Below, one piece after another: positions 60,291-64,000 of a stretch of 64,000 nt of DNA. The position numbers were made by a program, and so were the translations under genes. The notes below the pieces were generated by a model. It was not told the DNA's origin and did no database searches. It saw only the letters and a list, made by a program, of their open reading frames with translations. The stretch comes from an uncultured Gemmatimonadales bacterium (GTDB taxonomy: Bacteria; Gemmatimonadota; Gemmatimonadetes; Gemmatimonadales; GWC2-71-9). The stretch's first letter is position 1. Each line of letters opens with the position of its first letter. Location: contig CAWEWK010000010.1 of assembly GCA_963812755.1 (NCBI GenBank), positions 107,872-171,871 of the forward strand, in the 5' to 3' direction.

Positions 60291-60318
60291 GCCTGAGTAT
60301 GCCTGAGAATTATCTGAG
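60291..60318. promoter_or_regulatory. three phased direct repeats (G)CCTGAG / (G)CCTGAG / TCTGAG, spacing 10 and 11 bp
   Basis: CTGAG at 60293, 60303 and 60314. Begins 7 nt beyond the SARP start codon (60284). 83 nt upstream of the small ORF ATG (60402). Confidence 0.55.
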
Positions 60319-60401
60319 ATCCGTATGACGCGCCCGGCCTATAGTAGGACCACGTTTTTGACGGTGCAAGCGCAGTCATACTTCCAGAGGAGAGTACTAC
60401 A

Positions 60402-60677
60402 ATGTCAGCTCAACTTCGCAACCTGATGGGCGCCGGCTTCGTGGCAGGGTTGATGTTGCTTCCGGCCACTGGGGATGAGCCCTCGGCAGGAGCCCGGGCC
60501 CTGCTCGGACGCGTGGCCACCATCGCCCAGGCGAGCACTCGGTCGGATGCCGCGGACCCCTCTCATCCCCGCGCGGACCAGGCGCTCCTGGGGCGGGTCG
60601 GGGTGAAGCCCACCGTCGTCTCGACCGGATCGAAGTCGATTACCGGCGAGCAGGCAATCCTGGCGAATGGTCGCTAA
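60402..60677 (+). CDS. small secreted protein (91 aa), hypothetical
   Basis: GGAGAG 7 nt upstream of the ATG. Signal-like LMGAGFVAGLMLLPATG. Internal repeat ALLGRV x2 plus QAILANG. GC3-rich. Confidence 0.55.
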   Translation: MSAQLRNLMGAGFVAGLMLLPATGDEPSAGARALLGRVATIAQASTRSDAADPSHPRADQALLGRVGVKPTVVSTGSKSITGEQAILANGR

Positions 60678-60747: not shown

Positions 60748-63018
60748 CTAGAAATTGAGACCCATCTTCTCCAACAACGCGAGGAAACGCGGGCCCTGTC
60801 GGTAGGGATGCTCCAACCCCGGTGTCACTCGGGTAAACGCCAGCCAACCGGATCGTTCCGAGATAGCCTGCTCGGCCAGACGAAAGTGCTCATCGATGTC
60901 GTCCAGGCCAAGGTGCACGTAAGCCTCGATCATGGGCGACAAGTAACGCCGCTGCCGCTCCTGCCGAAGCCGGTCGATGATTCGTCTGGCATCCGGCTCC
61001 CTCCCCAACCGTCCGTAGAGATAGCCCGCTACCGCCAGCAGCGTCGGTAGTGGTCCAGCGAGGCTCAAGCCGCTTTCAATCTCAATGAGCGCCTCCTCGT
61101 ATCTCTCCATGTTGCTGAGCGCCCGGGATATCCAGGCACGGGTGAGCCCATACCGCGGCTCCATCTCCGCCGTGGCCCGCAGGTGTTGCAGGGCCTCTTC
61201 ATTCCGATTCGCGAAGGTAAGGGCACGCCCAACGGCCAGGTGAACGATGAGGGAGATGGGATCCAAGGCCTCCGCGCGCCGTAGGATCGCGAGCGCTTCG
61301 TCGTGCCGGCTCATCACACCGAGATAGTTGGCGTACCAGACCTGCGAAACAGTGTCCTCGGGTGCCAGTTCCATAGCCTTCCGGAACTCGGCTTCGGCCC
61401 GGAGCCAATCCCAGTCATACAGTAAGCTGACCGCGCCTAGCCAGCAGTGGGGACTGCCGAGCGTTGGCTCGAGCTCCAGGGCGAGTTGTGCAGCGGTCTT
61501 GGCCTTGGGCATCGTTTCCTTCGGGGGTAGGTCTCCCACGAATTCCTCGAACCCGCGCAGGGTCCAGCAACTGGCCAACCCGGCGTGAGCTCGCGCAAAC
61601 CTAGGATCCCGCTCGATTGACTGCTCGAACAATCCGATCGCGCTTTGGATCCCTTCCTGGGTTCGCTGATTGGCGGCATAGCATCCCTTGAGATACAGAG
61701 TGTAGGCCTCGATACTCGCCGTCGGTGGCTCCACCAGCGGAGCGCTCGCTGCTCCCACCCGTTGGGTCAGCGCCGTGGCGATGGCCTTGGCGAGCTCGTC
61801 CTGAACCGCGAAGACATCGGCCAGGGTTCGATCGTACACTTGAGACCATACCTGGTACCCTTGGGAGGCATCGATCAGCTGGGCGGTGATCCGAATCCGG
61901 TCGCCGACTTTCCGGACGCTCCCCTCGAGCAGGTGCTGCACCTTGAGTCGTTTCCCGATCGATCTCGCGTCCAGACTCTTCCCCTTGAACACGAATGCCG
62001 AGCTGCGCGCCGTCACCCTCAAGCCGGAAATTTGGGACAGCGCGTTGATGACTTCCTCGGTCATCCCGTCGCTGAAGTACTCATTTTCCTGGTCGGCGCT
62101 GAGGTTTACAAAGGGCAAGACGGCGATGGACCCTTGGGACCCCCGAGTGGCTCGCTTGGAAGAACGGGGTCGCTTGGAGGTGTCAGCCACCGCCCCAGTG
62201 ATGAGCTCGGCGAATGCCGCGGCGGTAGCTGGCCGGCCGCTGGGTAACCGCCGCAACCCGGTCTCGACCGCTCGGTCCAGGGCTGCCGGTACCCCAGCCA
62301 CATGATCGCTCAGTTTTGGGGAAGCGTCGTCCAGACGCTCAGCCAGAAGACCGTGGACCGTCCTGGACCTGAACAGAGGCCTTCCCGCCACCATCTCGAA
62401 CAGCACGCAGGCCAGGCTATAGATATCGCTGCGGCCGTCCAACTCCTGCTCGCCCGTCATTTGCTCCGGGCTCATATACAGCGGAGTCCCAACCAGCAGA
62501 CCGGCGTGAGTCAGACTCACATCCCCCGCGAGTCCGAGAGCCCGGGCGATACCGAAGTCCGTGACCAGCGCGTGGCCCTCCTCCAGAAGGATGTTTTCCG
62601 GCTTGATATCGCGGTGCAGGATGTTTCGGCGGTGGGCATAGTCCAGGGCCTCCGCCACCTCCTTCGCAATCCGAACCGCGTCGCCTATGGAAAGCTTCCC
62701 TTCCCGCTCCAACCGTTGCCGGAGCGATTCGCCCTCGATGAGTGGCATGACGTAGTACGGGCCGGATGGCCCCTCGGCGCTCTCCAGGGTTCCCGAGTCG
62801 TAGACCGGCAGGATGTGGGGATGGTGCAGTTGCGCGGTGAGCCGTATTTCTCGGAGAAAGCGCTCGAGGCCCAGGTGGGAGGCCACGTCGGATCGCAACA
62901 CCTTGAGCGCCACCGGCCGGTCGTGCTTGAGATCCCGGGCGAGAAACACCGTGGCCATCCCGCCCTGGCCGATCTCACGCTCGATGATATACCGTTCGGA
63001 AATGCTGGCTCGATTCAT
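60748..63018 (-). CDS. Ser/Thr protein kinase with TolB-N-like module and C-terminal TPR array
   Basis: GQGGMATVFLARD..ALKVL, HRDIKPENILL, DFGIA and SPEQ. Then IAVLPFVNLSADQENEYFSDGMTEEV, then multiple TPR repeats. 756 aa. Confidence 0.9.
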   Translation of the reverse strand: MNRASISERYIIEREIGQGGMATVFLARDLKHDRPVALKVLRSDVASHLGLERFLREIRLTAQLHHPHILPVYDSGTLESAEGPSGPYYVMPLIEGESLRQRLEREGKLSIGDAVRIAKEVAEALDYAHRRNILHRDIKPENILLEEGHALVTDFGIARALGLAGDVSLTHAGLLVGTPLYMSPEQMTGEQELDGRSDIYSLACVLFEMVAGRPLFRSRTVHGLLAERLDDASPKLSDHVAGVPAALDRAVETGLRRLPSGRPATAAAFAELITGAVADTSKRPRSSKRATRGSQGSIAVLPFVNLSADQENEYFSDGMTEEVINALSQISGLRVTARSSAFVFKGKSLDARSIGKRLKVQHLLEGSVRKVGDRIRITAQLIDASQGYQVWSQVYDRTLADVFAVQDELAKAIATALTQRVGAASAPLVEPPTASIEAYTLYLKGCYAANQRTQEGIQSAIGLFEQSIERDPRFARAHAGLASCWTLRGFEEFVGDLPPKETMPKAKTAAQLALELEPTLGSPHCWLGAVSLLYDWDWLRAEAEFRKAMELAPEDTVSQVWYANYLGVMSRHDEALAILRRAEALDPISLIVHLAVGRALTFANRNEEALQHLRATAEMEPRYGLTRAWISRALSNMERYEEALIEIESGLSLAGPLPTLLAVAGYLYGRLGREPDARRIIDRLRQERQRRYLSPMIEAYVHLGLDDIDEHFRLAEQAISERSGWLAFTRVTPGLEHPYRQGPRFLALLEKMGLNF

Positions 63019-63045
63019 CTGAGGATTTTCTGAGCCGCGGCTGAG
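63019..63045. promoter_or_regulatory. three phased CTGAG direct repeats, spacing 11 and 11 bp
   Basis: CTGAG at 63019, 63030 and 63041. The first repeat abuts the kinase start codon (63016-63018). 86 nt upstream of the ALDH ATG (63132). Confidence 0.55.
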
Positions 63046-63131
63046 GAAGAAGCTCTATTGTATGGCGCGGTTTCAGGGAGTGCAATCAATCCGCCTCATT
63101 CGCGCCTGGCTTCATCGGCGAGGAGAGCTCA

Positions 63132-64000
63132 ATGGCTACTGTCGCGGCAGCCAACCCATTCCATCGCGCCCAAACGACTTCGCGCCCCCAGCTGGACCAG
63201 ATGATCCGGCGGCTCCAGGACGGCAGCCGAGGCTTTGCTCGACTGTCGCTCCCCGAGCGTATCTCACTCGCCCGCTCCATGCAGGCCGGTTATCTGGCGA
63301 TCGCCCGAGAGAGTGTGGCCGCCGCCTGCGCTGCCAAGGGGGTTGCCCTGGGGACTTCCGCGGAGGGTGAGGAGTGGTTCAATCCCTGGTCCGTGGTGCG
63401 GCATTTGCGCCTCGTGGCGGAGGCACTCACCGCGCTGGCCCGCAAAGGAAACACTCCGATTGGACCGGTGAGCCGGACTGTAGATGGCAGGCTGGCCGTG
63501 CAAGTGTTTCCGGTGAGTCCGGTGGACCGGGTGCTCTTTCCGAGAATTACAACGGAAGTCCATCTGGCAACCGGGCAGACTGAAGAGGAGATGACCCGCT
63601 CCCGGGCGCGTTGGTACAAGTCAGAGCCTCTGGAGAGCGGGCCGGTGTTGGTCCTCGGGGCCGGGAACATGTCGATGATCCCCGCCATGGATGTCATCAC
63701 CAAACTCTTCAACGAAGGCAAGGTCTGTCTCTTGAAGATGAATCCGGTGAACGCCTATCACGGCCCGTTCATCGAGACCGCTTTCGCCGAGCCGATCGCG
63801 CGCGGCTTTCTGGCGGTGGCGTATGGCGGCGCCGAAGAAGGCGCGCACCTCGTCCAGCACCCCGGCATCGCGGAAGTGCACTTGACGGGCTCGGACCGGA
63901 CCTACGATGCCATGGTCTGGGGCCCCGCCGGGCCCGAGCGGGAGCTTCGGAAAGCCCGGAATACTCCGGCCCTGACCAAGCCAGTCACGGCAGAGCTGGG
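63132..64000 (+). CDS. aldehyde dehydrogenase family protein (3' end outside window)
   Basis: My own translation from ATG 63132 (AGGAGAG upstream): MATVAAANPFHRAQ...VLVLGAGNMSMIPAMDVITKLFNEGKVCLLKMNPVN...VHLTGSDRTYDAMVWG...TAELG. Open to the window end; not in the ORF track because it lacks a stop. Confidence 0.8.
   Translation, partial: MATVAAANPFHRAQTTSRPQLDQMIRRLQDGSRGFARLSLPERISLARSMQAGYLAIARESVAAACAAKGVALGTSAEGEEWFNPWSVVRHLRLVAEALTALARKGNTPIGPVSRTVDGRLAVQVFPVSPVDRVLFPRITTEVHLATGQTEEEMTRSRARWYKSEPLESGPVLVLGAGNMSMIPAMDVITKLFNEGKVCLLKMNPVNAYHGPFIETAFAEPIARGFLAVAYGGAEEGAHLVQHPGIAEVHLTGSDRTYDAMVWGPAGPERELRKARNTPALTKPVTAEL

Follow-up and report, generated by a model that had tools for sequence, protein, structure and literature searches.

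The window analysed here is a 64,000-nt stretch of DNA from a genome (4.78 Mb, 66% G+C) that falls within a lineage of Gemmatimonadales MAGs. At the locus of interest, the genes for a SARP-like regulator, P0001, and a Hanks Ser/Thr kinase lie on the minus strand, and those for a small secreted protein and an ALDH-superfamily enzyme lie on the plus strand; peroxiredoxin and ispG genes are further neighbors (Table 1). Since ispG follows the ALDH-like gene in convergent orientation, the ALDH-like gene is probably monocistronic here. Two arrays of the pentamer CTGAG, referred to as sites 1 and 2, are found on the same strand 2.7 kb apart, each in a divergent intergenic region.

Table 1. Features of the two CTGAG array sites in the window, and the site 2 copies of three related genomes
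Feature	Position	Strand	Description
SARP-like regulator P0001	59133..60284	-	383 aa; wHTH + BTAD (residues 1-235), C-terminal TolB-N-like module; proposed binder of both arrays
Site 1 array	60293..60329	+	CTGAG at 60293, 60303 and 60314; degenerate ATGAC at 60325
Site 1 putative core promoter	60340..60369	both	TATAGT + (60340-60345); TACTAT - (60346-60341); TTGCAC - (60369-60364); 17 bp apart
Secreted repeat protein	60402..60677	+	91 aa; putative target of site 1
Hanks Ser/Thr kinase	60748..63018	-	756 aa; TolB-N-like module + TPR repeats; ATG abuts site 2 array
Site 2 array	63019..63045	+	three CTGAG repeats, 11-bp phase; proposed SARP box in place of -35 element
-10-like hexamer TATTGT	63056..63061	+	putative ALDH-ward promoter; 10 nt past last pentamer
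TACAAT	63057..63062	-	putative -10 of kinase-ward promoter; same hexamer, other strand
TTGCAC	63080..63085	-	-35-like (GTGCAA on +); 17 bp upstream of TACAAT
GGAGAG	63122..63127	+	Shine-Dalgarno of ALDH-like gene
ALDH-superfamily gene	63132..64000, on to window-equivalent 64859	+	575 aa; divergent; proposed array target
G009 site 2			CTGAG-GATTTT-CTGAG-CGGCAT-CTGAC, 10 nt, TAGTAT; first spacer same as window's
G099 site 2			CTGAC-AAATAT-CTGAG, 10 nt, TATGAT
G042 site 2			CTGAG-GAATAT-CTGAC, 10 nt, TATGCT

The original prediction had singled out site 2 for its regular geometry, and the measurements it gave were borne out. The three repeats start at 63019, 63030 and 63041, an exact 11/11 spacing. 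The kinase ATG is the complement of 63016-63018, and the very next base begins the first repeat. From the end of the array it is 86 nt to the ATG of the ALDH-like gene; at site 1, where the perfect repeats are spaced 10/11 and the triple ends at 60318, it is 83 nt to the ATG of the secreted protein. Both plus-strand genes have the GGAGAG Shine-Dalgarno. The similarity of the two distances, 83 and 86 nt, had been taken as part of what the sites share, but this is not the meaningful constant. At site 1 the degenerate ATGAC is followed by 10 nt and then by TATAGT at 60340. With its 10/11 spacing and its degenerate fourth repeat, site 1 thus has the same register to the -10-like hexamer as site 2, and it is the 10-nt gap between last repeat and hexamer that is held constant. 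What stands is that the two arrays have a non-random regulatory geometry in common, one linked with the SARP-like regulator and the two plus-strand genes.

Such arrays are rare. The genome holds 7206 CTGAG pentamers, yet triples with spacers of 4 to 7 nt occur in its whole 4.78 Mb at sites 1 and 2 only, and shuffling the window yielded a CTGAG triple in 0 of 100 trials. A strict array pattern was found five times in 101 genomes of the genus, four of these in two genomes, with 10 occurrences of the reversed control pattern. That the repeats arose by chance, or are what a local duplication of site 1 left behind as neutral sequence, might be suspected from the 2.7 kb that separate the sites and from the rearrangement of the region relative to relatives. 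We regard this as highly improbable: the shuffles, the whole-genome count and the 101-genome scan exclude chance, as had been predicted, and site 2 is kept in three other species, where the spacers have diverged and the cores and register are retained. A relaxed scan of the genome (two CTGAG-type repeats, 9 to 11 nt, TAnnnT) returned only site 2 and the site of a paralogous regulator on contig C12, so the regulon should be small. We conclude that the site 2 repeats are genuine and look like a functional operator, one of a known kind but found in an unexpected phylum.

The known kind is that of the SARP regulators. P0001 matches the Pfam BTAD family (PF03704) at 1.2e-16 over residues 107-234, right after its wHTH. 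A profile of 19 sequences built on the first 240 residues found EmbR (2FEZ) at 9e-10 and AfsR (8HVR/8K60) at about 3e-9, aligned over positions 2-236. When the profile was confined to the wHTH (first 110 residues), EmbR was still found at 2e-5 and aligned through the recognition helix, and ToxR, CadC and an OmpR-type response regulator matched weakly. The AlphaFold model made from that alignment (mean pLDDT 94) has beta-strands, three helices and a wing. Its best PDB match by Foldseek was the AfsR SARP domain in a transcription initiation complex (4.7e-10, TM 0.65), followed by EmbR; the remainder were generic TPR matches at E > 1e-3. No Response_reg match to P0001 was found in Pfam or NCBIfam, and the wHTH is N-terminal. 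P0001 therefore has the OmpR-type N-terminal wHTH and the directly following BTAD of a SARP. The usual circumscription of the family also names an actinobacterial host and a secondary-metabolite cluster, and reviews confine SARPs to the actinobacteria and present them as the switches of antibiotic gene clusters. Here the host belongs to a Gemmatimonadales MAG lineage, and we found nothing relevant in the literature on BTAD in Gemmatimonadetes. We consider the host and cluster circumscription to be a family habit, not a structural criterion.

On sequence, site 2 conforms as well. SARPs recognize directly repeated motifs with a spacing of 11 or 22 bp, and 8 bp separate the 3' repeat from the -10 element (PMC10936776; PMC7040171), and in the AfsR complex two protomers lie side by side on a box that overlaps the -35 region (PMC10936776; PMC7040171; PMC10972967). 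Several SARP sites with three repeats have been listed (PMC7040171; PMC10972967). The 11/11 spacing of site 2 is that of a SARP box, and when the last repeat is counted as the heptamer CTGAGGA, 8 bp remain before TATTGT, the putative -10. Like the afs box bound by AfsR at afsS and the three-repeat sites of ActII-ORF4, DnrI and FdmR1, the array would place 11-bp repeats over the -35/spacer region; the Streptomyces boxes likewise have two to four repeats and the 3' repeat 8 bp from the -10, which is here a putative one. The Streptomyces proteins resemble P0001 in their OmpR-type wHTH and BTAD, in having large forms with extra C-terminal sensor domains, and in their partnership with Hanks kinases. 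The differences are also clear. The host is a member of the Gemmatimonadales, and its repeats have the core CTGA(G/T/C). At its C-terminus P0001 has a TolB-N-like module (with or without TPR) in place of NOD/TPR or FHA. The candidate targets do not form a biosynthetic cluster but comprise small secreted proteins and an ALDH-like enzyme. Moreover, the box lies inside a putative shared-hexamer divergent promoter, and the SARP module has 15 tblastn matches in this one genome, several of them beside a repeat array of their own. The operators of PhoP/PhoB (PHO box) and OmpR are similar in having 11-bp direct repeats that bind head-to-tail wHTH domains and often replace the -35 element, but those regulators have a receiver domain where P0001 has BTAD.

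AfsR is phosphorylated by the Hanks kinases AfsK, AfsL and PkaG (PMC10936776; PMC10972967; PMC7040171), and a Hanks kinase is also encoded next to P0001. The C-terminal 140 residues of the regulator are about 49% identical to kinase residues 275-413 (motif LPF.NLS, TolB-N-like module), so that two proteins with different outputs have one sensor-like domain in common. In a related genome we observed a natural fusion (locus L029, G049:C10:1-3046, about 806-2420 on the plus strand, about 537 aa) in which wHTH-BTAD runs straight into a Hanks kinase, and a second locus (L013, G005:C209) carries a single open SARP-kinase frame of the same layout. These fusions are a Rosetta-stone hint that regulator and kinase act in one pathway. 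EmbR of Mycobacterium tuberculosis works paired with the Ser/Thr kinase PknH. That pair is alike in setting a SARP-fold regulator alongside a Ser/Thr kinase, with EmbR (2FEZ) among our best sequence and fold matches, but EmbR reads phosphothreonine through an FHA domain, whereas P0001 is without FHA and has the TolB-N-like module in common with its kinase.

Across the genus, P0001-like genes are almost always divergent from secreted-protein and ALDH-like genes, with the kinase gene often following. Next to the regulator ATG, CTGA(G/T/C) is repeated three or four times in 11-bp phase, and TATTGTAG comes about 10 nt after the last repeat. We anchored 31 distinct promoters of the same Gemmatimonadales genus on the hexamer and recorded where CTGA occurs. 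It was present at -15 in 25 of 31, at -26 in 26 and at -37 in 25, counts that overstate independent support because the loci are kin; further out it was found at -48 in 14 of 29 and at -59 in none of 16. The columns between the repeats are variable and carry little information. The registers of the related promoters (-15, -26, -37, -48) are those of the 11-bp SARP-box phase. At each of the 26 distinct related loci that have both genes, a CTGA array precedes the ALDH-like gene by 150 to 1300 nt. The original prediction had proposed conservation as a check on the arrays, and the outcome was positive: orthologous and paralogous regulators in the genus have phased CTGA arrays.

Repeat and regulator also vary together. 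Recognition helices of the HRL(T/S/A)Q type pair with CTGA repeats, and paralogues with other helices, in this genome and in others, keep the same geometry with other repeats (GCTAA, TTTGA, CATGAC, ACGAC, ATCACGG or GTGAT). This covariation is the main evidence, indirect as it is, that the adjacent regulator would bind the array, and the kinship of the loci again makes it look stronger than independent cases would. In the window's own genome, paralogues at C5:167317, C7:492619, C5:123452, C12:12362, C16:27586 and C25:39815 each lie beside their own 11-bp phased repeats; these are CATGAC x3, ACGAC x3, ATCACGG x4, CTGAGGG x2, GTGAT and ATCAC, with a TAnnnT hexamer after them. The repeats of the paralogues amount to a family-wide address code.

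One of these paralogues bears on which protein would occupy site 2. The SARP-like protein of C12:12362-13057 adjoins CTGAGGG x2, followed by 10 nt and TAACGT, which makes it a second candidate for the site 2 binder. The same mechanism could in principle be served by this paralogue or by an OmpR/PhoB-type response regulator, given the weak fold resemblance of OmpR-type wHTH proteins to P0001 and the common site of PhoP and AfsR at afsS (PMC10972967). We think either binder unlikely. The recognition helix of the C12 paralogue differs (RHALHQVLHAIR versus HRLTQVLYALRR). The second, distal array is limited to the P0001 orthogroup (G000, G009, G099 and G042), is present at 0 of 22 other loci, and always lies about 0.15 to 2.7 kb from a P0001-type regulator. 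This restriction favors P0001 as the binder.

We next consider site 2 in the three closest relatives, where it lies upstream of a membrane-protein/ALDH operon. The gap to the TAnnnT hexamer is always 10 nt, and the spacers have diverged around conserved cores and register. For G042 a fuller hexamer, TATAGT, was dropped, since the 10-nt rule gives TATGCT. No kinase gene adjoins the array in any of the three, and the emphasis of the original prediction on an array touching the kinase start does not hold up there. Nor does the geometry of a "SARP-kinase pair": orthologous kinase genes lie elsewhere, directly downstream of the regulator gene in G009 and G020, two of the nearest relatives, and downstream of the ALDH-like gene in more distant genomes. 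(In the G020 regulator, a TAG flagged as internal is the end of a slightly shorter open reading frame, and the gene is not a pseudogene.) From the positions in relatives, the window genome has moved the kinase gene between the two promoters. That the array meets the kinase ATG is an accidental outcome of this local rearrangement, not a conserved feature.

The contact itself is not an artifact of a misplaced start codon, a possibility raised with the prediction. Twelve codons upstream of the ATG there is an in-frame TAG, with no ATG, GTG or TTG between, and a protein begun at the first alternative start downstream would lack the glycine-rich loop. In orthologous kinases the start lies 8 to 13 residues ahead of the same RY.IERE.G.GGM motif. 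The kinase leader has no Shine-Dalgarno. Kinase genes downstream of the ALDH gene at six other loci (L050, L054, L055, L056, L057 and L049) have a different promoter/leader type: they have a TTG start with TATTGTAG about 25 nt upstream, CTGGCTGG is conserved at a greater distance, and the leader contains a CCCTCC stretch.

What lies beyond the array looks different on the two strands. A consensus scan returned no canonical -35/-10 promoter at either site. On the target-ward (plus) strand, a -35 match of at least 4/6 was seen in 0 of the 31 related promoters, with the proviso that neither the sigma factor nor the promoter consensus of Gemmatimonadota is established. The putative -10 of the other, regulator-ward strand reaches 4/6 or better in 29 of 31, and a TTG stands 16 to 18 bp (mostly 17) upstream of a TACAAT-like hexamer in 29 of 31. 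The conserved TATTGTA reads as TACAATA on the minus strand and the conserved GCAAG(C) as (G)CTTGC; at both sites in the window GTGCAA begins 24 nt after the start of the hexamer. Judged by motif and spacing, TACAAT with TTGCAC has the look of a regular promoter directed toward the kinase. Read by eye, the three site 2 orthologues that have no divergent gene showed no properly spaced TTGC -35; its absence there fits a -35 element that serves the divergent gene. As a genome-wide promoter class, TAnnnT[AG][GC] followed by 14 to 18 nt and GCAAG is not enriched (38 matches versus 96 in the reversed-genome control), for which reason we interpret GCAAGC at these loci only. In other genomes TATTGTAG, in its forward sense, also precedes the start codons of the kinases downstream of ALDH by about 25 nt, and hence plausibly acts as a -10 in that orientation too.

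Predicted start sites follow from these elements. The plus-strand start would lie near 63068 and the minus-strand start near 63050, 18 bp apart. With the latter, the kinase leader would be about 31 nt and would consist of the three repeats themselves. Among the bidirectional promoters of E. coli that share a -10, at which polymerase bound in one orientation shuts out the other, 18 bp is the most frequent distance between start sites (PMC12825309). The arrangement suggests, on motif grounds, that the site 2 core is a shared-hexamer bidirectional switch.

From the anatomy of the sites, their conservation and the fold of the regulator, we infer the following course of binding, activation, transcription starts and switching. 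SARP-family protomers would line up on the CTGAG repeats, each taking one turn of the helix; most likely they are those of P0001, whose gene is 2.7 kb away. The repeats would cover the -35/spacer region, from about -27 to -49 relative to the predicted plus-strand start. Since they fill that region, the bound protein would recruit RNA polymerase to TATTGT at 63056, a hexamer without a -35 of its own. On the other strand, TACAAT and TTGCAC would serve as a conventional promoter toward the kinase, with the array as its leader. Because the hexamer is common to both directions, regulator binding would be expected to switch transcription from kinase-ward to ALDH-ward, and the bound regulator would occlude or roadblock kinase-ward transcription (regulator-ward transcription at site 1). 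We consider it probable that the array is the operator, a SARP box, of an activator-dependent ALDH-like promoter, on whose shared hexamer such a kinase-ward switch may be built.

Perhaps the array acts on the kinase alone, as a repressive operator or roadblock in the leader that provides kinase feedback and has no role at the ALDH-like gene? It does fill the stretch between the predicted kinase-ward start and the ATG, and the regulator genes of the family likewise have an array in their presumed leader. In the orthologous site 2 copies, however, array and 10-nt gap persist where repression would have no divergent gene to act on, and both the strict hexamer register and the lack of a plus-strand -35 in 31 of 31 promoters fit activation. 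We judge a purely repressive role to be quite improbable. A role as RNA, in which CUCAG repeats in the kinase 5' leader control translation or stability, deserves very little credence. A genuine minus-strand promoter would put the repeats into a transcript, and no Shine-Dalgarno precedes the kinase; but the predicted leader folds no better than shuffled versions (z = 0.15) and has no match in Rfam, on which grounds we rejected an RNA element. In addition, a period of 11 nt belongs to DNA in its helical form, and the same arrays are present where no gene reads in the kinase direction.

The preferred reading, an activator operator within a shared-hexamer promoter, has a parallel in bidirectional promoters whose -10 is shared and pseudo-symmetric (Warman et al. 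2021; PMC12825309). There, too, one TAnnnT/TACAAT hexamer is read both ways, starts lie 18 bp apart (here as predicted), and a regulator site to one side favors one direction over the other. The known cases are from E. coli and Salmonella; in the window the starts are predicted ones only. The locus differs from these in pairing the core with a SARP-like array, which recurs over many related promoters. To our knowledge, no shared -10 coupled to a SARP-type activator and conserved over a paralogous regulator family has been described.

If true, the reading would describe a compact activator/auto-repressor switch of a type not described for SARPs. One regulator would raise an ALDH-like enzyme and lower the kinase that shares its sensor module, a feedback circuit. 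More broadly, an uncultured soil phylum appears to hold the complete SARP design, with the wHTH-BTAD fold, 11-bp repeats and an 8-bp gap to a putative -10. The many paralogues, whose repeats vary with the recognition helix, offer a natural table of helix-to-repeat specificities and a route to regulon prediction in Gemmatimonadota from sequence alone. We raise only tentatively the wider idea that the Gemmatimonadales have a large SARP-like family in which each member has its own repeat "address," the box lying in a shared-hexamer promoter and flipping polymerase from the regulator or partner kinase to the targets. New here are the orthology of site 2, the rearrangement behind the kinase contact and the predicted opposite-strand promoter.

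Several further observations were made at these and similar loci. The secreted protein encoded at 60402-60677 has three copies of an (E/R)ALLG(R) motif. Its counterparts in G009 and MAG153 (L002, 2748-3062, and the upstream region of L062) keep the signal peptide and the ALLGR/ALLNR repeats and are otherwise little similar; the 91-aa protein may be a signalling-peptide precursor. A 1.6-kb contig of another genome (L024, G049:C24) carries a site 2-like array, CTGAG-GTCTTT-CTGAG-TTTCGG-CTGAG, followed by 10 nt and TATTGTAGG. The predicted targets of this array are a secreted protein and a gene resembling selenium-binding protein/methanethiol oxidase, and its divergent gene has an N-terminal extension typical of another kinase class; a full-length P0001 orthologue was not found in G049. 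Finally, on contig C10 of the window's own genome, upstream of the window at about 82660-82730, GATAGC-type units with a period of about 8 nt stand just before a TAGCCT hexamer.
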